Both the position numbers and the translations under genes were made by a program. Source: an uncultured virus (IMG/VR IMGVR_UViG_3300023687_000086) (Duplodnaviria; Heunggongvirae; Uroviricota; Caudoviricetes). From it: DNA of 64,000 nt. The DNA lies in the IMG/VR virus record IMGVR_UViG_3300023687_000086. One strand, given 5' to 3'. Below the pieces are notes generated by a model. The model was not told the origin of the DNA and ran no database searches. It worked only from the letters and a program-made list of their open reading frames with translations. This document shows, in pieces, positions 3,812-62,745 of this stretch. Each line of letters starts with the position of its first letter. Within the stretch, counting starts at the first letter, position 1.

Positions 3812-4444
3812 TTATTTAATGCGGGTCTTTTCGATATCTCTCTTGCACATGCTTATATGATTCTTAATGTAGTCATATGTTTTCGGACATGATACTTTTA
3901 GAGCTTCATTGTTAAGTACATATTTTTGGAATGATTCTGCAAAGAACTCTGCTGGCGACGAAACGTTTGCTTCCGCACACTCCGGAAACGCTTCTTGAAA
4001 CAACTCTCGTTCTGCGTTATAGATTTCAATACTATCTGCTTCTTTTGACGGAAATCCCTGTATATAGTCTACAGCGTGCCATGTTTCATGGACCAACGAA
4101 TCGATTCTGTCTTCTGGAAGATAAATGATATGGTTGTCGTACACGGTAAGTCCAATGATCTTTTCGTCGTATCCATATCGCATCGCAAGGTACGCCATTT
4201 CATCTTCGGAATCTACAATATAGCCCCACTGATGGACCATTAACAGCTGCGTCACTTCGCTCGGAAGTACATCCAGATAATTTTGCAGCGTCTCCGAACT
4301 GTTTTCGCCGGCTTTTACATGAAGTTCTTCCATCTTTGCATCTGTAGTATATTGCACGTCTTTTTTGGCATAAAAAGTGGCACCACTTAAGAGGGATGCC
4401 ATGAATGCAAGAACTACGAACGCTTGCAATATTCTATTTCTCAA
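3812..4444 (-). CDS. Secreted zinc metallopeptidase, anthrax lethal-factor (ATLF)-like domain
   Basis: Signal peptide, HETWH (HExxH) and EFFAESF...CPKTYDYI motifs. Confidence 0.7.
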   Translation of the reverse strand: MRNRILQAFVVLAFMASLLSGATFYAKKDVQYTTDAKMEELHVKAGENSSETLQNYLDVLPSEVTQLLMVHQWGYIVDSEDEMAYLAMRYGYDEKIIGLTVYDNHIIYLPEDRIDSLVHETWHAVDYIQGFPSKEADSIEIYNAERELFQEAFPECAEANVSSPAEFFAESFQKYVLNNEALKVSCPKTYDYIKNHISMCKRDIEKTRIK

Positions 4445-11702: not shown

Positions 11703-11960
11703 ATGGCACAGTTAAGTATGCGCGTTGATGATAACGTAAAGAAAAAGGCCGAACTGGCTTGCGAAGCTCTTGGACTAACCATGACAGCAGCAATCAATCT
11801 TTATCTTGTAAAACTTGGAAATGAGATGCGGATTCCATTCGAAGTTTCTGTGGATCCGTTCTACAATCCAGAAAACCAGCGCGTCTTAGAAAAGTCTATC
11901 CAACAGTTAAACTCCGGCAAAGGTGAAAAACATGATTTGATTGAGGTGGACGATGAATAA
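11703..11960 (+). CDS. RelB/DinJ-family antitoxin
   Basis: LSMRVDDNVKKKAE..CEALGLTMTAAINLYL...IPFEV. Confidence 0.85.
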   Translation: MAQLSMRVDDNVKKKAELACEALGLTMTAAINLYLVKLGNEMRIPFEVSVDPFYNPENQRVLEKSIQQLNSGKGEKHDLIEVDDE

Positions 11961-12216
11961 GACCTGGTCTGATATCGCTTGGAACGATTACTTGTACTGG
12001 CAAGAGCAAGATAAAAAGACGCTAAGAAAAATCAACGCTCTGATTAAAGATATTGACCGGAATGGCTACAAATGCAAAGGTGGTCCAGAACCGTTAAAAG
12101 GAAACCTTACCGGTTACTGGAGCGTACGTATCAATCAAAAAGATCGTTTGGTCTTTAGAATCATAGACGGTGAACTCGAGATCGTTCAGTGTAGGACTCA
12201 TTATGGTGATAAATAG
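11953..12216 (+). CDS. yoeB: Txe/YoeB-family toxin
   Basis: AWNDYLYWQEQDKKTLRKINALIKDI...PEPLKGNLTGYWSVRINQKDRLVF. Confidence 0.9.
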   Translation: MNKTWSDIAWNDYLYWQEQDKKTLRKINALIKDIDRNGYKCKGGPEPLKGNLTGYWSVRINQKDRLVFRIIDGELEIVQCRTHYGDK

Positions 12217-19552: not shown

Positions 19553-19599
19553 CTGTGGATCCAATACAGCGTCAAATACTTTTAAGGAGGATCATGCGT

Positions 19600-20769
19600 A
19601 TGATCTATGTTGGTATCGATGTTGCAAAGGACAAGCACGATTGCTGCATCCTGGGATCGGAAGCCGATAAAATATATCCGGTCTTTACCATCCCGAATAA
19701 CAAAGCAGGCTTTGATGAGTTGTATGAGAAGATTTTCTCCGTGACTGATGATCTGAATGAAATAAAAGTAGGCCTTGAAGCTACCGGTCACTACTCACTC
19801 AATCTTCTCGGTTCGCTCATTGATAAAGGTCTGACCACCTGTGTTATCAACCCGTTACATACAAATCTTTACAGAAAAGGTCTAAGCCTTAGAAAGACGA
19901 AAACGGATAAGGTCGACGCCGGTTCAATTGCAATGATGTTGATGACTAATAAGACTCTCAAGCCCTACTCAGACACATCATATCATAGTGAAGAACTCAA
20001 GTCATTAACCCGCTACCGTTTCGACAAGGTTCAAGAGCGAGCCAAGCTTAAATCGTCTGTGGCTCGTCTTATTAACATCTTGTTTCCAGAACTGGAAAAG
20101 CTCGTTTCTAATCTTCATATGGCTTCTGTGTACGCCTTACTTTCTGAGTTTCCCGGTGCTTCTTACATCGCTGAAAGTCACCTTACCCATCTCAGAAATG
20201 TCCTTGAAACAGCTTCTAAGGGACACTACGGACGAGATATGGCTGTCACCATAAGAGATGCTGCCAAGGATTCAATCGGTTCTGTTATGCCTGCAAAGTC
20301 AATGGAGTTGAAGCACACCATCCATCTGATCGAGGTGATGACAGATGAGATTGATGAAATCGAAGCTTCAATCAAATCCATCATGGATACTTGCAACTCT
20401 CCGATTATGACAATCCCAGGAATCAGCTACCGCATGGGAGCAATGATTCTTGCTGAGATTGGCGATTTCACCCGTTTCAGCAATGCCGATCAGATACTTG
20501 CGTTTGCAGGGTTATCGCCATCTACATATCAGTCAGGGCAGCTTGATTCAAGCTATTCCCATATGGAAAAGCGAGGATCCCGTTATCTGAGGTATGCTTT
20601 GTTTAATGCCACTAAGTTCGTCTGCAAATGGGATGAAAACTTCGGAGCCTACCTTTCAAAGAAGATAAGCGAAGGCAAGCATTACAACGTTGCAGTCGGT
20701 CATGCGACGAAAAAGCTGATACGCACCATCTATCGAATGGAACTTACAGGCGAAGCCTACCGAAAATAA
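19600..20769 (+). CDS. IS110 DEDD recombinase/transposase
   Basis: YVGIDVAKDKHD, GLEATGHY, KTDKVDA, TIPGI, AFAGLSP..YQSG, KRGSRYLR; RBS AAGGAGG. Confidence 0.95.
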   Translation: MIYVGIDVAKDKHDCCILGSEADKIYPVFTIPNNKAGFDELYEKIFSVTDDLNEIKVGLEATGHYSLNLLGSLIDKGLTTCVINPLHTNLYRKGLSLRKTKTDKVDAGSIAMMLMTNKTLKPYSDTSYHSEELKSLTRYRFDKVQERAKLKSSVARLINILFPELEKLVSNLHMASVYALLSEFPGASYIAESHLTHLRNVLETASKGHYGRDMAVTIRDAAKDSIGSVMPAKSMELKHTIHLIEVMTDEIDEIEASIKSIMDTCNSPIMTIPGISYRMGAMILAEIGDFTRFSNADQILAFAGLSPSTYQSGQLDSSYSHMEKRGSRYLRYALFNATKFVCKWDENFGAYLSKKISEGKHYNVAVGHATKKLIRTIYRMELTGEAYRK

Positions 20770-46873: not shown

Positions 46874-48523
46874 CTATTCTTTTACCAATGTTCGATTCCA
46901 AGACGGGTCGCTTTCTACGTTTATGTATATAGTACCGTCTTCGTTTGGCGTAATTGTAAAGGTATAATCCAAACCAGGTGATTCCTCTTCACTAAATCCA
47001 AGGTATTCTGCATTAACATGCGCTTCATAGTGGTCACCAACTTTTGAAAAATTGCCGGCCTCATCGCCAATGCCAATGAAGCCACTGTCTTTGGTATCGA
47101 ATCGGATCAGTATTGTTGACCCATTATCTCCTCCAGTCGGATTCGTCCAAGACCCAATTAAATTGAATTCTTCTTCGTCGACGATTGTGGTATCGGATTC
47201 GACGACAGATTCTGAATCGTCCATTCGAACGCTTGTTTTCTCGATACCTTCTAATGAATCTACCGGCTTAGTATCAATACTACTATATACAAAATAGTAA
47301 CGATCATTTATTGTCGTTTGATAAATAAGATCATAGTATACCCTATCGTCAGACTCCATGACATTTGGAGTTGAGTGTTCGGAAAAATAGTCTTCGCCAT
47401 AGTTCTCGAGCCATTCTCGATATATTTTTTCCGTGTATACCATTATATCATAATCGTTTCCCCAGCCGTAACCACGCCAAAAATCATCCGGATCACCATC
47501 CCAGTCCGTATTTATGTCTCGAACAACTTCTTTCTCTAACGTTCGACAGGCCTCTTCATAACGCTCCTCTATAAGAAGCTCGTATACGAGTTCGCGTACG
47601 TCCGGCTCATTTTGATTTATTACCACAGCTGCGCCAATAGATCCGGCAGCAACCACTCCGGCCGTACCAATCGCAATCACTTTTGTGCTCACAGTTTTGC
47701 CAGCCACTGTTATGGATTTCGAGAAAAAGGCCTTAATTGTGGCCAATATACCCTTCGGAGCGGCTTTCGTTGCAACATTAGCGGCCACAAATGCTGCTCC
47801 GGTAACAGGTAACGTAGCAGCCTCTGCTTCGACACTTGTATGGAACATTGCAAGTACGAATACAATAGCTGCACCATGAATCTTGATACCTCTGGATTTC
47901 TCAATTTCTAGGATCTTCTTTTTCGCCTTTGCCTTACCCTGGTTCACATAACTTTTTACGGTATTCACGGACACACCATACACGTCCGCGATTTCCGTTT
48001 GCTTATATCCCTGCAAGAACTGCATAATAAGAGCTTCTCTTTGTTCCGTAGTTAATGTATCAAGCACTTCTTTTACAATTTCATCGACACTTTCTTTTTC
48101 GAACAACAAAGCGTCCGGGCGCTTATAAAACTCGTTCAAAGCGTACATGATTTGGTCGTCGGAATCCAATTCATCCAAAATATTTAGCTCTTCTTCGTCG
48201 CCATTTTCTACCGGCTTAATAATCGATTCCGCATTGATACGTTTCTTGGCTTCTCTGGCCTGGATCATATCCGTCGCTGCATTTCTGGCCGCATTTTTAA
48301 CATAAGACCCAAAATTCGTGATATCCTCGCCAGCCTGTAACTTAGCGAAGCACTTTACAAAAGCCTCTTGCGTTGCATCTTCGCGGTCTTCAGCGGTCCC
48401 AAGATGCTCAGTGCCAGAATACGCGTGCTTATAATAGGCTTCATATAAATACGCAAACGCTTCCTGATCGCCAGTTTTGGCTCGTTTTAGCATTTCGTTT
48501 GCTTTATCATAATCAAAGTTCAT
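46874..48523 (-). CDS. ECF-type sigma factor fused to TM segments and an extracytoplasmic domain
   Basis: Region 2 (DREDATQEAFVK...NAARNAATD), region 4 (GYKQTEIADVYGVSVNTVKSY), then hydrophobic segments and about 240-aa acidic tail. Confidence 0.85.
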   Translation of the reverse strand: MNFDYDKANEMLKRAKTGDQEAFAYLYEAYYKHAYSGTEHLGTAEDREDATQEAFVKCFAKLQAGEDITNFGSYVKNAARNAATDMIQAREAKKRINAESIIKPVENGDEEELNILDELDSDDQIMYALNEFYKRPDALLFEKESVDEIVKEVLDTLTTEQREALIMQFLQGYKQTEIADVYGVSVNTVKSYVNQGKAKAKKKILEIEKSRGIKIHGAAIVFVLAMFHTSVEAEAATLPVTGAAFVAANVATKAAPKGILATIKAFFSKSITVAGKTVSTKVIAIGTAGVVAAGSIGAAVVINQNEPDVRELVYELLIEERYEEACRTLEKEVVRDINTDWDGDPDDFWRGYGWGNDYDIMVYTEKIYREWLENYGEDYFSEHSTPNVMESDDRVYYDLIYQTTINDRYYFVYSSIDTKPVDSLEGIEKTSVRMDDSESVVESDTTIVDEEEFNLIGSWTNPTGGDNGSTILIRFDTKDSGFIGIGDEAGNFSKVGDHYEAHVNAEYLGFSEEESPGLDYTFTITPNEDGTIYINVESDPSWNRTLVKE

Positions 48524-51129: not shown

Positions 51130-51324
51130 TTAGAACGGCAATGAAAACGTATCTTCGATCAGTTCCTGTAACTCGGTTAAACATACTGGACAAATATTTG
51201 TCTCCATGCCACCGCCACTAAAATACTCCATCTCTAAATGATGAACGTTCACTAGGGACTTACCGCAATACAGGCACTGGTTTTCGCCTGGCAATTCTTT
51301 GATTCGGAACTGATTCTTACTCAT
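51130..51324 (-). CDS. Small zinc-ribbon protein
   Basis: CLYC...CPVC. Confidence 0.55.
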   Translation of the reverse strand: MSKNQFRIKELPGENQCLYCGKSLVNVHHLEMEYFSGGGMETNICPVCLTELQELIEDTFSLPF

Positions 51325-51851
51325 GCTGCACACCTCACAATAAAGTCACGGCACTTAACTCGAACGTGTCGGTATCCATCACTTTCGGCCGTGTGCCAAT
51401 TCGCAGAAAAATCGATATGATCGACAAGCTGCTCCGGTATTTCACATCCAAATCCATTGAATCCAATTTCTTCGTACATAACTCTACCAAGATTGTCTTC
51501 TGTTGCGCATACACCATGACCGTTGTTCCAGTTATTTGTGATTGCATCGAAATCGAGAATCTCGATATCTTCGAATCCATATTTAGCGAACTCTACGATT
51601 TCGCTAAAAAGATACGTTTTTGAAAGCACCTTTAAATTCTCTTCTGTAAGATCCGCTTCTTTTGCCGCACGCAAAACCTCACGGACCGTTTCAATCGGGT
51701 CAAATTCGCTAGGATCCAAAGTGCTATCATGGTCAACGACCATGTATTCGTGGTCCGGATTTAACTGAAGCGTCATAACGTCTCCAGATATATCCGCACA
51801 AACATCTGCAGCACCATTTGCAATTGTTAAATCTCTTACAACAATCTGCAT
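51321..51851 (-). CDS. Hypothetical acidic protein (weak ArdA-like C-terminus)
   Basis: EDNLGR...EIPEQLVDHIDF resembles ArdA EIPE.L..YIDY. Confidence 0.5.
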   Translation of the reverse strand: MQIVVRDLTIANGAADVCADISGDVMTLQLNPDHEYMVVDHDSTLDPSEFDPIETVREVLRAAKEADLTEENLKVLSKTYLFSEIVEFAKYGFEDIEILDFDAITNNWNNGHGVCATEDNLGRVMYEEIGFNGFGCEIPEQLVDHIDFSANWHTAESDGYRHVRVKCRDFIVRCAA

Positions 51852-52225
51852 TACGCTACCTCCACATACTGTTCTCTATGCCACAAATCGTGTCTCATCC
51901 ATTCAACATATGAAGAATAGAATCTAGCACCAAGGCTTCTAGCAAAGCTGAATCCTCGCCACTCGCACTGTTCTAGGATTTCTCTTGTGAATTCCTTAAT
52001 TGGTGTCTTATTCGTAGCGTCACACCCAGACCCAGTAGGAGCATATGGCTTATATTTAAACGTAACATTAAAGCCACGATCAAAACACTCACGCTGCACG
52101 TAAAGAACATTTCCTTTTGGGGTAATTACATAGAACCAGGAGGTTCCAGGCGCTTTTAATACACGGTATCCGCCAATAGCCTTAATCTGTTCGATTGCTT
52201 CTTGAAGTAATTCTGCTTTATTCAT
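51851..52225 (-). CDS. Hypothetical protein
   Basis: RBS GAAAGGAG, class-1 motif at 52268. Confidence 0.6.
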   Translation of the reverse strand: MNKAELLQEAIEQIKAIGGYRVLKAPGTSWFYVITPKGNVLYVQRECFDRGFNVTFKYKPYAPTGSGCDATNKTPIKEFTREILEQCEWRGFSFARSLGARFYSSYVEWMRHDLWHREQYVEVA

Positions 52226-52336
52226 AACTGTTCTCCTTTCGTGATAAAGCAATTGTTTTTTACCTACTTAAATATGGACACGATTAAAAGGTACAAAAAA
52301 ACACTCCCGAATTGATCGAGAGTGCCTTTGCTGTAA

Positions 52337-53233
52337 TTAGAGAGTGATTTCACCGGTCTTTCTGTTGTAGTAGTATGGATGGTCAGATAAAATATCTTCC
52401 GGTGCAACTTCCGTGGCATTTACCTGCTGCACCAACTCCATAAGTCCCGCATAATCGCTCTTGTCCATCGCTGGAAACAAAATAAGTTCATGGATGTTTG
52501 ACGGCAAAATGAAGAAATCTGACTGTACGCACTTAGCGAATTCGGAAAGCATATCCGGATACAACATAGTGGTCGCGCCATTAACCTTCGGTCCGTTGGA
52601 AACAATATAGAGACGCTGCAGCTGCATAACCTCCATAAGCTCGTCGTCCATTGGAATACCCATCATCTCTTCAAGAACTTCTCCCATTGGACGGACAACG
52701 TGCGGCAATAAGCGCGGAGTATTTGCTGACGCAGCTTCCCACAAGTCATCGACAGTTACGTTCCACAGCTTCAAATGTGAATTATGCAAAAGAATAGTCG
52801 CAGTCTCATTTTCCTTCTGCTCGAATAAACATAAGAATACTATTGCAAGATCCAAGTAATCTACATACGGAACGTCCTTCAATAGATCCTTGTTCCTGTC
52901 CTTGTTCACAAGCTTATAGATGACACGAGGCTTCACAGACTCGAAATCGTTGAAAAAGTCCACATCAAGATCCTGACTTGGCCGGTTGTTCTCGTAAATC
53001 TGCACCACCTTATCTAGCACTTCAGAAAAGCTAAGCTCCCCTTCTTTCATTCGACGGTAAAACTCGTTCAAATAGATTGTAGGCGAAATTGAACATCCTG
53101 GCTCGCGAATCACAAGGCCATCTAACTTGCGGTCATTGTTCTTTAGTACGGTTCGGATGCAGATCTCAGTGTCATCAGAAAATCTACTACTAAGGCTGAT
53201 TGGTACTTCTTTTAAGAATTCTTCATACAACAT
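52337..53233 (-). CDS. DUF5688-family protein
   Basis: ISPTIYLNEFY, YLDLAIVF, NGATTMLY, ILPSNIHELI, EVAPEDILSDHPYYY. Confidence 0.8.
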   Translation of the reverse strand: MLYEEFLKEVPISLSSRFSDDTEICIRTVLKNNDRKLDGLVIREPGCSISPTIYLNEFYRRMKEGELSFSEVLDKVVQIYENNRPSQDLDVDFFNDFESVKPRVIYKLVNKDRNKDLLKDVPYVDYLDLAIVFLCLFEQKENETATILLHNSHLKLWNVTVDDLWEAASANTPRLLPHVVRPMGEVLEEMMGIPMDDELMEVMQLQRLYIVSNGPKVNGATTMLYPDMLSEFAKCVQSDFFILPSNIHELILFPAMDKSDYAGLMELVQQVNATEVAPEDILSDHPYYYNRKTGEITL

Positions 53234-53516
53234 TTTTTTGTTCTCCTCTCATGTATGAGTTATTTGGTACTTTGTACCTGTTACATACTTAAATATGGGA
53301 GAAATTTTCATATACAAAAAAAAGAGACCCATGTATGGTCTCTTCATAAGCTCTTAGCATGAATTTTGTACATTCCGATAATACCATTCGTCTACTCGAT
53401 GGCCACGGTAATGTATCACCGATATCCATATTGATTCAGTTCTCTTTCAAACATCAGGCGTACGTGTATCTGGTAACCATCTCGTGTGCTGTAACGAGTA
53501 AAAATGCAAGATGTCT

Positions 53517-53749
53517 CCTCGATACCCTTGTTAGCCAGTATCCCTCTCGGCCATTCTTCTTCTCATATACTCCAACTCTCCACCTCGATACACTTATTAA
53601 TCAGTAGCCCTATCGGGCCAGCAATTAATGGGTTCTCAGTCCAGTCAACCTCGATACCCTTACTAACTGGTAGTCCTCTTGGACTCAAAAGGAAGTTCGA
53701 CGTAGATTTAGCTGCATCGACACCCTTGTAACTGGTAGCCTTCTCGGAC
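53517..53749. repeat. Regularly interspaced 36-nt repeats with 30-nt unique spacers (degenerate CRISPR-like orphan array)
   Basis: Repeats at 53517, 53583, 53649, 53715 (period 66), consensus CCTCGATACCCTTRYTAACYRGTAGCCCTCTCGGAC; decayed copies near 53452 and 53774. Confidence 0.7.
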
Positions 53750-53865
53750 GTCATATAGGGTGGCCTGTACGACAAGTTCTACCACATCTAATACGTAGTC
53801 CTACCTTGTTTTCCAGGGCCGGTTCGGCTAAAAGCCAGGACGATCGTTCGCCCAAATCAATTCTA

Positions 53866-54030
53866 TCAACTAGTTTCCAATAATTCAATGTCGGATTTTG
53901 CCATCTCCGATACGCTCTTATCACGTTCCACGAGAACAGATGTATCTAATTCACTAATGATTCTATACACATTCCCATCATAGATGTTTCGAACTTTCGA
54001 GTCCTCTAAATAAACAGTCTTCTTCTTCAT
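53866..54030 (-). CDS. Small beta-rich (SH3/KOW-like?) protein, 54 aa, upstream of repeat array
   Basis: MKKKTVYLEDSKVRNIYDGNVYRIISELDTSVLVERDKSVSEMAKSDIELLETS; RBS GAAAGGA. Confidence 0.5.
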   Translation of the reverse strand: MKKKTVYLEDSKVRNIYDGNVYRIISELDTSVLVERDKSVSEMAKSDIELLETS

Positions 54031-54091
54031 TACTTTAGTCCTTTCTCAAACAAGAAGGCCGAACCATTTTGGCGCGGCCTTTTCGTTTGAT

Positions 54092-57000
54092 CTAATTCGT
54101 TTTTGTTATCGTAACAACAACTTCGTCTAACCGAGCCTTTGCTTCATCAGAAACTGGTACTTCTTGGCCACCTTCTTTTGGTGTAAAGGTTATGTACACT
54201 GTTGTTGGCTCATTAAACGTTTCTGTATACTGTTTCGCGTTAGCTGGTTGCAACTTACGAACTCCAGTAGAATCTTTCACAAATACCTTAAAAATGTAGT
54301 CTTCAAACAACATTGTTGCGTCAGAATTTAATGTATATGTACCAGATGGTACCGTAAATTCTTGATACGAAAAGGCTTTGTTCCAGCCTTCTGCATGCAC
54401 GCTTGTCGCATCGGCCCATCGATTGTAATTTACGAGTAAATTCGTATCGACAGTGTATGTAACGCCATTTTGCGGATCTTGTGTCGAGCTAACGCCATTG
54501 ATATCCGGCAGTCTTGTGAACTGAACAGACAACTCATTTAATCGCTCGATTTCAGATTGTGTGATTACACCAGCATCGCTATTTGGCAGTTTTTCCACAA
54601 GTACATATATAACTGTATCTTCTGAAATTGTAATTATACTACTCTTATCTGTGTCACAAAGATATCTAGCACCTGCTGCCGTAACACCAATAACGGCGAT
54701 TTTTCCGGTGGACCATAACGAACTATAATCGGCGATCATCTTATATCGTCCAGGTTTTAAAACGAATGGTTCGTAAGAAACACGATGATTCCAAGTTTCC
54801 GCATGAAGTGCTGGGATTTCTTCTTTTCCGACCCAATAACTTTGTGCGAATTTAACGCTCGTTTCAACAGCTTTTGTCTCTCCAACAGAAAGTTCCATGA
54901 TCGGTTTTGTTGATTCTCCCCAACGATTCTTAATGAATTCAGCCTGACGGGTATCAATATTCTTCATCGAATCCGGGAATACAACCTTCGATACACCGGT
55001 GTACACTGGTGTGTTACCATTATCCAGCCAAAAAGCATTTGGAGCGATATTCTCGCAGCCATCAACGATTCTAATTTCACCTTCGTAGAAATGAGGGACC
55101 GCTAATAAAGTCTTTTTGTCCTTCGTATATAATAAACCATCGATGGCGGTATAATTAGGATTCGTATCTTTTGTTTCGTACCTTTTAATTGGTACGTAGG
55201 CATATGTAGAAACAGACAAACTGTTACCACTATTCAATGCGGCCGGGTATAATGTCTCTTTAATTGTTTGCTCATTAATATCCGGAATAAACTGGTATGA
55301 ATCTCCAATTACGAGCGTGTTGATGTTTTTGTTTCGTGAAAACGATAATTCACCAATATATTTCGTCTCATCCGGCATTACAAATGTATTATTTTCGAAT
55401 TCTGCAGCTCGTGGAATAGACACTAAACGCTCTTTTCCCTTTGTATAAAGGATACCATTATCGGTTTCGAAATGAGTGTTGCCTTCTTCTACGATAAATT
55501 CTTTAAACACACCATCTTTACCCATGTTATAAAATGTATGTGCGCCAACGCCAGAACCAATTTTCTCTACATTTTTCGGAATCACATAAGAAGAACCATT
55601 GTATGCCGTGTAGTGACAGAAGACGAAGTCATATAATTCATTGACATCTTCTCCAAGTATCATTTGTTGATCGCCGAATACATAATCATGGCCGGACGTA
55701 TTTGTTAAATACTGAATCGCTAACTGATTAACCACAAATTCAGTTGCATCTGGGAATGTATCTCGTAAAAATTTCATACCGCTTCCGGAACTGACTGCAA
55801 AACCACCAGTAAGCTTAGAAAAATCAACCTTTGTTATTCCATGGAACACACCCCTAAGGGAGACGTAACTGTTATTACCATTTTCTAGTACTAGTGTCTT
55901 TGCCTCTGCAGGCACGATATCAGGAGAAATCGTCCAAGTACCATTATCAACGGTTAACTCGTCATACGGGTACCGGAAAACATCACCTTCGCATGTATAT
56001 GTTCTGTGCGCCAAATGGCCACCAATATTAACATCTTCTCCGTTTGATGCAGAGATCAGGTCGTCTAGATACGCGGTGTCTGTAAATGCACTTGGACTTA
56101 CATAATCTAGATGGTCCGGTAAAGTCACGGACCTTAAATTTCTGCAGCCAGCAAAAGCCTCAGCGTCAATATAACGGACATGTTCACCCAAAACGACTTC
56201 TTCTAATCGGCTTCTCTTTAACATGTCTGCACTAAATGCGTTACGCGTTACGTACGGCAAATCATAGTACAGTTTTTTCGGACCGTTTCCACTCCACCGA
56301 ATCTGCTTTATGTTCTTTGATGCACTATATTTAACAGTTAAGGTATCGCACTTATCTACAAACGATGGGTCATAGGAGTCAAAATATGTGTTCTCGTCAA
56401 TCACAACATCTTTTAAATGGTTGTAATGATCTGATAAATAATACGGACCATCTCGATACTCTGGAGCTATTTCTGTAGATCCATCCGGCTTTAACACGTA
56501 ATTGTTATACAACCGTCCTTCAATCTTTAAATACGGTCCAGCATTTTCGAATACCACATCACTCGACAAATACAAATCATTTAATATTGGGGATCCATTA
56601 TTAAAATCAAATGTGACTGGATGATCGTAATAAAACGCATCTTGTCCTTTACCACTGCTTTTGCGCAATACGGTCAATTCCTTGTTATCCGGAAATACAA
56701 TCTTCTGTAAATTCGGGTATGCAACCGAAATGCCAGCTAAATCAACACTCTGGATCAGAACATCGTCGACTCGACTCGGAATGATTAGTTCTGTGATATT
56801 CGAATCCGAAGCAATTCGTTCCTTCATGTCAGATACAGTGAGTTTTGCCCCATGTTCGGATATTGAAATGTTAACCGGGATCACAGTTGTATATTTTCCC
56901 GCACGCAATTCCGGAACTGTATACCACATATCGCCCATAAACCCAGACTGCGTTTGGCCGCCGATAAAATAGTTATGTGCAGATCTTCCACCTGTTAACT

Positions 57001-57349
57001 CGTAGTCTTCTTCGGTACCTTCCCTATGAATCGAAAGTGTTCTTGGAATGCTCAAGTCGATACGTTTAGAATCCGGCAATGTATTCTTTGTAACACTGGC
57101 GTGCCACTGTAGCGGCCACTTAATCGGTTCTTTTGAGTTCTTCAACGACATTGATACCTTTGTTGGCACCTGGATTTCAAACTCGCCCTGTTCCGTCGCG
57201 TCAGCCGTTACAACAATATCCTGCGTTTGCTGATTCGGATTAGACTCTGCTGCGTAAGCAAACTGTGGTTGCGAAATCATCGTAACCGACAACAGACCCA
57301 AGCTAATCGCCCGTTTAATTGTGCTCAGTTTGAGATAACTGGATGTCAT
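54092..57349 (-). CDS. Large secreted BspA-type leucine-rich-repeat surface protein
   Basis: Signal peptide; IDAEAFAGCRNLRSVTLPD, NPNYTAIDGLLYTKDKKTLL repeats. Confidence 0.8.
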   Translation of the reverse strand: MTSSYLKLSTIKRAISLGLLSVTMISQPQFAYAAESNPNQQTQDIVVTADATEQGEFEIQVPTKVSMSLKNSKEPIKWPLQWHASVTKNTLPDSKRIDLSIPRTLSIHREGTEEDYELTGGRSAHNYFIGGQTQSGFMGDMWYTVPELRAGKYTTVIPVNISISEHGAKLTVSDMKERIASDSNITELIIPSRVDDVLIQSVDLAGISVAYPNLQKIVFPDNKELTVLRKSSGKGQDAFYYDHPVTFDFNNGSPILNDLYLSSDVVFENAGPYLKIEGRLYNNYVLKPDGSTEIAPEYRDGPYYLSDHYNHLKDVVIDENTYFDSYDPSFVDKCDTLTVKYSASKNIKQIRWSGNGPKKLYYDLPYVTRNAFSADMLKRSRLEEVVLGEHVRYIDAEAFAGCRNLRSVTLPDHLDYVSPSAFTDTAYLDDLISASNGEDVNIGGHLAHRTYTCEGDVFRYPYDELTVDNGTWTISPDIVPAEAKTLVLENGNNSYVSLRGVFHGITKVDFSKLTGGFAVSSGSGMKFLRDTFPDATEFVVNQLAIQYLTNTSGHDYVFGDQQMILGEDVNELYDFVFCHYTAYNGSSYVIPKNVEKIGSGVGAHTFYNMGKDGVFKEFIVEEGNTHFETDNGILYTKGKERLVSIPRAAEFENNTFVMPDETKYIGELSFSRNKNINTLVIGDSYQFIPDINEQTIKETLYPAALNSGNSLSVSTYAYVPIKRYETKDTNPNYTAIDGLLYTKDKKTLLAVPHFYEGEIRIVDGCENIAPNAFWLDNGNTPVYTGVSKVVFPDSMKNIDTRQAEFIKNRWGESTKPIMELSVGETKAVETSVKFAQSYWVGKEEIPALHAETWNHRVSYEPFVLKPGRYKMIADYSSLWSTGKIAVIGVTAAGARYLCDTDKSSIITISEDTVIYVLVEKLPNSDAGVITQSEIERLNELSVQFTRLPDINGVSSTQDPQNGVTYTVDTNLLVNYNRWADATSVHAEGWNKAFSYQEFTVPSGTYTLNSDATMLFEDYIFKVFVKDSTGVRKLQPANAKQYTETFNEPTTVYITFTPKEGGQEVPVSDEAKARLDEVVVTITKTN

Positions 57350-57827
57350 ACGTCAGCGTTCCTTTCCATTTTCCAGGTCGAACAGATTGACCGCTCGCCG
57401 GTTTTAAATTGCAGTGAACCAAAGTTTCGGTGTCAGGGTTTACATCATCATAAGAAAATACCGTCTTTGGGTCTTCCACTTCCATTGTTATCACTTCCGG
57501 ATTTTTATCAAATACGCCTTGTTTTTCTAGGTTGAAATTTGTACCATCTACAGAATCGACCTCATCTTTTGGTGCAACCATTAGTTGATACATCGGATCT
57601 ATATCGCCTTTAATTGCGATATCATATCCGCCGACTCCGCTTGTTGAGTCTAATGCTACCGATGTAGGCAATCCGACCGTAAAAGACGAACCAATAACAA
57701 CTTCTGCTTCGATCTGAGCTGTTCCTGAATTAGACATTGACGTTCTTTCAGAAGCCTGTACAGGCATCATACAAAAAATCAACGCAATAGCGGTGCCGGA
57801 TGCAATTATTCCATTACTCCACCTCAT
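57315..57827 (-). CDS. Secreted WxL/fimbrial-shaft-like protein
   Basis: Signal peptide; FTVGLP...GKWKGTLTYDI. Confidence 0.55.
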   Translation of the reverse strand: MRWSNGIIASGTAIALIFCMMPVQASERTSMSNSGTAQIEAEVVIGSSFTVGLPTSVALDSTSGVGGYDIAIKGDIDPMYQLMVAPKDEVDSVDGTNFNLEKQGVFDKNPEVITMEVEDPKTVFSYDDVNPDTETLVHCNLKPASGQSVRPGKWKGTLTYDIQLSQTEHN

Positions 57828-57838
57828 GATAAGCCTCC

Positions 57839-58303
57839 TTACTGCTTGTGAATAACCAAACCATCAACATTTGAGGCAGCAACAATCTCGTTCTTATGAA
57901 ACACGGTGATTTTATATTTCAAATCGTTCGCGCCATCATGAAGCACCTCATTCGTATACACATTCAATGGTTCTGCATCTCCAGGTTTAATTACACTAGA
58001 TTTGTGAACCTTCTGCCCATTGATGTATACGTCATACTGCAATGTGTATCCCTTTTCCTCGTTCGCCTCATCGTTTACAAGATAAATGTTTGGTTGATTC
58101 TCGGATACACTTACATCAGAACGTCCGGAAATATATGCCATATCGCTAACCTGGCTACTTGTTGTCTCGTTCGGAATATCAGCGATTGCAATGGTATTTG
58201 CCGGCTCTACGCTTCGCGTAAGATAAAACCACATAGCAGCGGCACCGGCAGCCATTGCAGCCACAACTCCGAGTGCAATTAGTATTCTTTTCTTTGACTT
58301 CAT
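57839..58303 (-). CDS. Membrane-anchored Ig-like protein
   Basis: N-terminal TM; LVNDEAN...LQYDV...SSVIKPG. Confidence 0.55.
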   Translation of the reverse strand: MKSKKRILIALGVVAAMAAGAAAMWFYLTRSVEPANTIAIADIPNETTSSQVSDMAYISGRSDVSVSENQPNIYLVNDEANEEKGYTLQYDVYINGQKVHKSSVIKPGDAEPLNVYTNEVLHDGANDLKYKITVFHKNEIVAASNVDGLVIHKQ

Positions 58304-62179: not shown

Positions 62180-62407
62180 TTACGCAGCCTTTGAATAATC
62201 GATAATAGAGATTTCTTGAAAAACATTCTTCGCTGCGGATACAATTTCTTCCAAACGTTCGGATACTTCATCACTAAAGGTGACTTCTCCACATACTTGG
62301 CATTCAAGACAAGGCACGTTCCGAACAACTATGATGCATCCATTGTATTCCACTGTAAAAGTAGTAAGTGTATGGACTTTATTGTCCCCAAAACAAGCAT
62401 TACACAT
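62180..62407 (-). CDS. YgiT/MqsA-type zinc-finger antitoxin-like protein
   Basis: MCNAC...VRNVPCLECQVCGE. Confidence 0.8.
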   Translation of the reverse strand: MCNACFGDNKVHTLTTFTVEYNGCIIVVRNVPCLECQVCGEVTFSDEVSERLEEIVSAAKNVFQEISIIDYSKAA

Positions 62408-62409
62408 AG

Positions 62410-62745
62410 CTATTTCTCCTTTCTTGTCTTATAATCCTGTTCCCAGTGTTCCATATCTGGCCGATATGCGGAAATGATAATGATTTTCCGCTCATTAAAT
62501 CCAACAACAACATGTATTGCTCCATTTTCTTGAATATCAATCCATAATATCAAACATGATGGAAATGAGCCGTCGTGCACGTTATCCGCATCAAGAGGAT
62601 AGTCTTCAATTATTTCGCCATGAAGAATACAGTTAGCTATATCATTTCTTGAAATATTCCTTTCAAGCATTCTTTTCTGGCAATGAACCGTGTACTCCAC
62701 AGGAATCCCTGATGTAAAAGCATCTCGCAGTTCTTTAATGTCCAT
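62410..62745 (-). CDS. DUF4258 toxin-like protein
   Basis: YTVHCQKRMLERNI...GEIIEDYP...IHVV...ISAYRPD...W. Confidence 0.8.
   Translation of the reverse strand: MDIKELRDAFTSGIPVEYTVHCQKRMLERNISRNDIANCILHGEIIEDYPLDADNVHDGSFPSCLILWIDIQENGAIHVVVGFNERKIIIISAYRPDMEHWEQDYKTRKEK

Follow-up and report, generated by a model that had tools for sequence, protein, structure and literature searches.

On the minus strand of the window (the whole analysed stretch of 64,000 nt, from the uncultured virus record IMGVR_UViG_3300023687_000086), a candidate non-coding RNA gene lies between a 54-aa ORF and a DUF5688 gene (Table 1). It begins with a structured leader, continues with an array of degenerate 36-nt repeats and intervening linkers, and ends with an intrinsic terminator. 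The original prediction had described an orphan array of this geometry. The array stands, but it is only the middle of one larger RNA whose conserved parts are head and tail; the GC-rich leader, terminator and 54-aa ORF described around it were all three confirmed in the sequence.

Table 1 Features of the RNA locus and its neighbouring genes, in minus-strand order (window coordinates)
Feature	Position	Strand	Remarks
54-aa ORF	53866..54030	-	homologs P0001 (94%), P0062 (47-55%)
Sigma-70/A-type promoter-like site	53860..53888	-	TTGAAT, 17 nt, TG-extended TAGAAT
Whole non-coding RNA gene, ~510-540 nt	53316..53853	-	RNA contigs, fold z, promoter, terminator
5' hairpin P1, 6 bp	53838..53853	-	pair probabilities 0.83-1.0, both alleles
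5' strand of predicted long-range closing helix	53827..53836	-	
Conserved 5' domain	53762..53820	-	long irregular hairpin, three stems and two internal loops
Repeat unit U1 (35 nt)	53715..53749	-	
Linker/spacer S1 (30 nt)	53685..53714	-	
Repeat unit U2	53649..53684	-	
Linker/spacer S2 (30 nt)	53619..53648	-	
Repeat unit U3	53583..53618	-	
Linker/spacer S3 (30 nt)	53553..53582	-	
Repeat unit U4	53517..53552	-	
Conserved last linker S4 (29 nt)	53488..53516	-	
Decayed fifth repeat	53452..53487	-	missing from L087
Conserved 3' irregular hairpin	53367..53418	-	2 one-sided changes with pairing kept, no double change
3' strand of predicted closing helix	53349..53358	-	
Intrinsic terminator	53316..53345	-	9-bp stem and U-run; conserved in L087
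DUF5688 gene, downstream of RNA	52337..53233	-	own copy of recurrent promoter-like motif, ~53288-53299

Sequence comparison indicates that the 54-aa ORF belongs to a genuine but sparsely represented small protein family with two homolog clusters. It affiliates with no Pfam, PHROG or PADLOC family, and its structure was predicted at low confidence (pLDDT 57 from 3 sequences; Atlas matches below 0.9). In PLSDB the DUF5688 protein has matches on Butyrivibrio plasmids alone (3 records, 28-34%). On the Butyrivibrio plasmid pCY360 (L083, 1-4840), a DUF5688 gene stands head to head with cas12a; the RNA models gave no match on pCY360. An ArdA-like anti-restriction gene (51321-51851, minus strand) lies 1.5 kb downstream of the RNA amid small genes downstream of DUF5688, its assignment resting on a weak Pfam match below the cut-off (E 5e-5). 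This neighbourhood recalls a plasmid anti-defence region.

Gene density is high in the window, and nearly every gene is on the minus strand. Pfam matches include a CHC2/DUF3854 primase, a VirD4-like coupling protein, NrdD/NrdG, ThyA, FolD, NAD ligase, dUTPase and helicases, besides the ArdA-like and DUF5688 genes. The primase has about 32% identity to large clostridial plasmids and also matches 57 metagenomic proteins, and contigs of up to 155 kb carry proteins of the window. These data suggest that the window belongs to an uncultured megaplasmid-like element from gut Clostridia.

Several further features of the element were noted. The motif CATATTTAAG recurs at 13 minus-strand sites in the window, on the coding strand (53299, 52277, 51071, 46812, 40075, 34100, 25105, 23238, 22154, 17313, 13798, 13140 and 6777; raw count). 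It is mostly placed right behind a T-run and upstream of a gene, and is likely an element-specific promoter or operator. The element also encodes an ECF-like sigma factor (46874-48523, minus strand), in which a hydrophobic stretch separates sigma-70/ECF-like N-terminal domains from a long C-terminal part, and which looks like a membrane-tethered sigma factor fusion. Two overlapping small ORFs at 11703-12216 run on the plus strand, opposite to the general gene direction, and presumably resemble a type II toxin-antitoxin pair of the RelB/DinJ-YoeB kind. Another probable toxin-antitoxin pair consists of a DUF4258 gene followed by an MqsA/YokU-like zinc-ribbon gene (62180-62745, minus strand). An IS110 transposase (19555-20769, plus strand) looks intact, and a secreted-looking protein of 210 aa (3812-4444, minus strand) has a weak Pfam match to an ATLF metallopeptidase-like domain (E 1.5e-7).

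Ends and transcription of the RNA

The promoter-like site overlaps the end of the 54-aa ORF and predicts a start at about 53853. It agrees with the consensus at 9 of 12 positions, within a region that as a whole is no richer in such sites than shuffles; in L087, an orthologous locus from metagenomes, both hexamers and their spacing are identical. The fold z of the minus strand is −2.85, versus −1.72 for the plus strand.

The listing for 53250-54100 comprises 24 sequencing runs, of which 14 sampled RNA from animal faeces. All but one of these 14, many of which may share one campaign, contain 26-46% of the sampled words; runs with shares below 0.2 that were not aligned were excluded from the evidence. 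The contigs of three RNA runs and one DNA run, chosen using this very stretch, were aligned to 52000-55000. In all three RNA runs the contigs of the locus are confined to 53351-53857, from promoter to terminator: X7 has a contig at 53352-53838 (487 nt, zero differences, depth 55), X9 has contigs at 53351-53777 (depth 235) and 53735-53853, and X19 has one at 53548-53824 (depth 5). Two RNA runs end at 53351-53352 without a loose end, and the DNA run continues past this point. The only other RNA pieces in the interval are short, of depth 2-4, and lie on DUF5688 and at the left edge. No RNA contig covers the 54-aa ORF, which lay within the query, and this does not imply that the flanking genes are silent.

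The contig limits agree with the extended −10 promoter and the terminator, and their stops count as a weak hint, as contigs give neither strand, level, processing nor true ends. Since single contigs of 487 and 428 nt cross all repeats, long unprocessed molecules (or DNA) are present. The contigs support transcription of the locus as a long RNA, from about 53853 to the terminator, and the RNA is probably abundant. The array is non-coding and, given the RNA contigs in metatranscriptomes, very probably transcribed, as originally inferred. The intact 22-aa-repeat protein with invariant spacers, named at that time as the contrary outcome, did not appear: no reading frame crosses the array in either allele, and the linkers differ between the orthologous loci.

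Repeats, linkers and folded ends

The four repeats are as claimed, with plus-strand starts 66 nt apart. Five ungapped copies are pairwise identical at 25-29 of 36 positions (69-81%). Over seven copies from two alleles, four from the window and three from L087, 13 of 36 columns are invariant and the conserved core reads UAC...UAAYAAG...UCGAGG. A covariance model of these seven copies scores the four window copies at 46-52 bits, by construction, and the next match in 99 kb at 11 bits; Tandem Repeats Finder reported nothing at the locus. Two decayed copies had been proposed in addition. The one at 53452-53487 is retained for its in-phase position behind a 29-nt linker: in a profile scan it falls within the top 0.3% of background at the best of 3 offsets, and the covariance model at E≤5 does not pick it up. 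The one near 53774 reaches only the top 4% of the profile scan at the best of 4 offsets and is not supported, this stretch belonging to the folded 5' domain. The linkers of the window are indeed unrelated to one another (shuffle p 0.45-1.0). The window is also cas-less: no cas family was found among 71 ORFs scanned with Pfam, and the sole Cas-type match of PADLOC on 24 ORFs was a weak Cas3g (E 2e-4) on a DEAD-box helicase.

The covariation proposed for the repeat hairpins did not rise above the control, 148-218 of 500 shuffles reaching the observed value. For the two repeat hairpins 89% of cells can pair, with 1 double change. In the predicted ensemble of the whole RNA the repeat hairpins, some of which bear GNRA-type loops, are mostly unformed, and the fold of the array part is no more stable than that of shuffles (z −1.1 and 0.0).

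Two full alleles were compared, those of the window and L087, plus partial contigs; L087 is the one true ortholog among the 12 loci of a metagenome pattern scan, and an X21 contig with its allele was not counted as a separate allele. L087 has three repeats, compared with four and a decayed one in the window, with linkers of 29 and 27 nt, periods of 65 and 63, and no decayed copy. It is also devoid of three surface-protein-like genes which in the window (54092-58303) stand between the helicase and the RNA and were therefore inserted or lost. In the neighbouring helicase 41 of 137 four-fold sites differ between window and L087, which sets a neutral yardstick of about 70% identity. Above it are the leader (76/87), the last linker (28/30, 53487-53516) and the tail (106/109, 97%); U4 and the last L087 repeat (27/36) are indistinguishable from neutral. 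In the two alleles the linkers have kept their length of 27-30 nt, but not their sequence. S3 and the L087 linker that holds the same place counted from the 3' end are near neutral (16/27). Their likeness exceeds that of shuffles (p 4e-4; 15 pairs tested, of which this one was expected by position), so that at least one linker has changed by drift and not by replacement. S1 and its L087 counterpart are identical at 12 of 29 positions (shuffle p 0.07), which is below neutral (P 0.001 ungapped; 14/28, P 0.02, gapped).

A second variant of the RNA is present in X7 (depth 45) and X9 (depth 480). It matches only 53735-53853, with 16 differences, and continues with the repeat consensus and then with other letters. 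In X9 record 16 and X21 record 6 this 5' end is preceded by unrelated sequence; beyond 53755 X21 record 6 carries a different hairpin-like sequence. Because these two contigs place the 5' end in other upstream contexts, the 5' domain defines a small family, and the 54-aa ORF, first seen as a companion of the array, is a neighbour but not an obligate partner of the RNA. One X21 DNA contig matches only 53377-53413, 37 nt of the 3' hairpin, with other letters on either side, those upstream partly alike; it is possibly a more distant member of the family.

The structure of the 5' domain is supported by covariation. Between the window and L087, 4 of its 24 pairs are compensatory, 3 are changed on one side with pairing kept and 1 is broken; pairing amounts to 98%, versus 25-48% in slid registers. 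The shuffle control gave 25/500, a value that could hardly be lower with two sequences, for a structure taken from the window's own fold. In L087, where a deletion intervenes, the first repeat takes over the 3' strand of the outer stem. A hand count of 11 listed among the 16 differences of the second variant places 4 in 2 compensatory pairs of the 5' domain, while 3 preserve pairing, 1 disrupts a pair and 3 are in a loop. P1 is invariant between window and L087, hence without covariation. A closing helix of 10 bp would link the 5' end to the stretch immediately ahead of the terminator (pair probability 0.84-1.0, both alleles) and, as its sequence is invariant between the alleles, is only predicted.

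Searches and comparison with known systems

Blastn of the region gave no match in plasmids (E≤1) or phages (E≤5). The search for spacer targets also came back empty, with no match in plasmids, phages, 401 genomes or the window, in collections which hold few relatives of the elements of this habitat. Against the window, six linkers showed no self-target above shuffles; S2, the one of four spacers scanned against viral contigs, had no target there. Nothing found thus speaks positively for the guide function originally inferred: no target turned up, and one pair of linkers resembles homologs that have drifted apart. Pattern scans of viral contigs returned 0, 1, 0 and 57 loci, of which the 1 and the 57 were judged chance, and all 23 loci of a genome-contig pattern were single chance matches. 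A DNA search of the 401 genomes (the family of G100, picked for DUF5688 genes and presumed Lachnospiraceae) gave one match, in coding-like sequence and judged chance. The repeat model, with 46 candidates scored per genome, gave one match in a first set of 150 genomes, inside a 277-aa ORF and likewise judged chance, and none in a second set of 150. No host CRISPR array with a similar repeat was found in these 150 + 150 genomes by the repeat model or in the 401 by DNA search. The leader model had no match in 149 genomes, two Butyrivibrio plasmids and two viral records. None of 300 and none of 401 genomes contained the element's own primase; these samples thus contain no related element, and blank searches in them say little. 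The helicase and the 54-aa ORF had no relatives among viral contigs.

Rfam gave no family at gathering score, ROOL, GOLLD, OLE, 6S, tmRNA, riboswitches and ribozymes included, and at E≤10 only two chance rows (E 1.7 and 7.8); the repeat matched none of its CRISPR families. A tRNA/tmRNA scan found none. Likeness to hammerhead, twister, tRNA arms, a tracrRNA nexus and Cas13 repeats was considered, and none was backed by Rfam. No description of the RNA was found in open-access text by a word search, which is blind to an unnamed motif.

CsrB/RsmZ sponges are single RNAs with repeated protein-binding hairpins and many GGA motifs in the loops. In contrast, the units of the RNA described here are long and regularly spaced, and GGA occurs at shuffle level (10 vs 11 expected and 6 vs 6.3 expected). 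With CRISPR arrays the locus shares the 36/30-nt repeat-spacer geometry and, in the window, unique spacers; however, such arrays require near-identical repeats, and those of the window agree at only 25-29 of 36 positions. Given repeats 69-81% alike and one linker pair that looks drifted, the array is no ordinary active CRISPR, as had been held from the start. Similar in setting are the CRISPR mini-arrays, cas-less arrays on mobile elements which, like the locus, have their own promoter and terminator and CRISPR-sized units (PMC11656645); the locus is cas-less within the 64-kb window. The mini-arrays described there have 1-2 spacers, repeats identical to those of the host and spacers mostly matching related viruses, whereas the RNA of the window has 3-5 diverged repeats, no targets found, and a conserved folded head and tail.

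Racr and pseudo-ToxI are also promoter-driven RNAs of mobile elements, proposed to titrate a host RNA-binding defence protein (PMC10651486; PMC5086642). Racr RNA anti-CRISPRs are presented as solitary units resembling known CRISPR repeats (PMC10651486); the RNA of the window, in contrast, is an array of 3-5 units within a frame of 500 nt, with no similar repeat among the genomes and Rfam CRISPR families searched. TIGR arrays have in common with it degenerate hairpin-bearing units, an origin in gut metagenomes and a terminator at the end (PMC12045711; 10.64898/2026.09.09.750476), yet in these accounts they carry two variable segments of 8-12 nt, as opposed to one of 30 nt. With the TIGR motif set (10.64898/2026.09.09.750476), intervals of box C-9 nt-box D within 15 nt gave 0 pairs on either strand of either allele; as for a Tas gene, no Nop-domain Pfam match was found near the locus and the sole IS110-type gene is 33 kb away. 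Type III toxin-antitoxin systems (ToxI, CptI, TenpI, AbiQ) resemble the locus in the succession of promoter, RNA repeats, intrinsic terminator and gene, but their antitoxin repeats are described as tandem without unrelated linkers (PMC5086642), and those of the window are split by unrelated linkers of 30 nt. The downstream gene matched DUF5688 only in Pfam and nothing in PADLOC or PHROG, hence no ToxN/CptN/TenpN/AbiQ family, and it has a promoter-like motif of its own. ROOL and GOLLD, too, are large, apparently abundant structured RNAs of gut mobile elements with no function assigned (PMC12286853); the RNA of the window differs in having no Rfam match or tRNA island, and a variable internal array in place of a dense conserved fold.

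Possible functions of the RNA

We tentatively consider the locus a plasmid-borne non-coding RNA gene whose product is a multivalent protein-binding decoy or scaffold, at somewhat less than an even chance. A housekeeping-type promoter at about 53853 would drive transcription to the terminator, and the 5' domain, the 3' hairpin and the end-joining helix would form a stable frame. This frame would enclose 3-5 modules, each of a 36-nt element with a conserved core and a 27-30-nt linker. The modules are read as protein-binding sites because the sequence core is kept while the hairpins are weak in naked RNA; each may bind one copy of a protein, and the abundant RNA would then act as multivalent decoy or scaffold. 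By analogy with RNA anti-CRISPRs or pseudo-ToxI repeats, the likeliest target would be an RNA-binding protein of the host with a role in defence or regulation; decoys that mimic repeats have precedents on mobile elements (PMC10651486; PMC5086642). RNA contigs from promoter to terminator, the conservation of leader, last linker and tail, a variable module number, repeats with 13 invariant columns in spite of 25-29/36 identity, the lack of spacer targets and the nearby ArdA-like gene are consistent with a decoy. Several observations argue against it: no partner protein or similar host CRISPR repeat was found (300 genomes, repeat model, 1 chance match), S1 is more diverged than neutral, and the repeat hairpins are mostly unformed, with non-significant covariation. 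Moreover, the 66-nt spacing, the unrelated linkers, the conserved last linker and the decayed terminal repeat have the polarity of a guide array.

This polarity suits a guide-RNA precursor, a reading that we regard as rather unlikely; the so far unrecognised RNA-guided effector would then be encoded by another part of the plasmid or by the host. Here the unit would be a 36-nt handle with a 27-30-nt guide, the 5' domain would serve as scaffold or processing signal, and diversification would proceed by mutation and recombination rather than by Cas1-Cas2 acquisition. The 36/30 geometry points this way, a 66-nt period being one of three modes of CRISPR arrays (10.64898/2026.10.21.760802, section 2.3), as do linkers that show no mutual relation inside the array and vary from allele to allele, S1 beyond neutral, and a third allele that carries the same repeat and then other letters. 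In its favour, too, the window takes in just 64 kb where the contig may reach 155 kb, and the TIGR arrays indicate that guide arrays may go without sequence conservation (10.64898/2026.09.09.750476). On the other side, the 64-kb window encodes no effector, the searches of plasmids, phages, 401 genomes and the window (and of viral contigs for S2) gave no target, S3 and its L087 counterpart are homologs at near-neutral divergence, and a predicted helix closes the whole RNA, with long contigs spanning the array. Slightly less probable again is its specific form, a precursor of an undescribed non-CRISPR, non-TIGR system of gut megaplasmids with a 5' scaffold, degenerate handles, no acquisition module and an effector elsewhere on the plasmid.

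The same geometry and polarity could also be left over from a decaying orphan CRISPR array within a small RNA that is functional only in head and tail, the more so as divergence is close to neutral in the repeats and in S3, units were lost by deletion, and expressed yet unprocessed orphan arrays are reported (PMC5294841). Such a relic is improbable: 13 of 36 columns are invariant over 7 copies and two alleles, linker lengths remain 27-30 despite saturated sequences, and the first L087 repeat makes the 3' strand of a conserved stem of the 5' domain. A little less probable than a relic is an RNA-only structural assembly of the ROOL/GOLLD kind, with the modules in RNA-RNA contacts. Its size, apparent abundance and mobile-element origin are similar (PMC12286853) and some repeat hairpins have GNRA-type loops, but Rfam gave no match at E≤10 bar the 2 chance rows, the array part folds no better than shuffles, and inspection revealed no consistent pseudoknot. 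That the locus does not act as RNA at all, being a gene for a 22-aa repeat protein or a set of phased DNA sites (iterons, parS), is very improbable and largely refuted. In several repeats a motif can be read in one frame, the third codon positions are slightly more variable (0.19 vs 0.13-0.14) and 66 bp equal six helical turns; however, neither allele has a spanning frame, the L087 periods are 65 and 63, the 5' domain contains compensatory pairs, and the RNA contigs stop near promoter and terminator.

The RNA is apparently undescribed, a conserved frame around a variable CRISPR-sized array which matches none of the tested array systems. One of the most visible transcripts of uncultured gut megaplasmids seems given over to an RNA unmatched in the libraries. 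With its small size, its defined ends and its presence in public metatranscriptomes, the gene lends itself to direct tests of both readings, as a decoy and as a guide precursor. A guide precursor would mark a new programmable system. If the RNA is instead a decoy, as we tentatively favour, RNA-based counter-defence would extend from solitary repeats to multivalent scaffolds and would point to an unknown target in the host.
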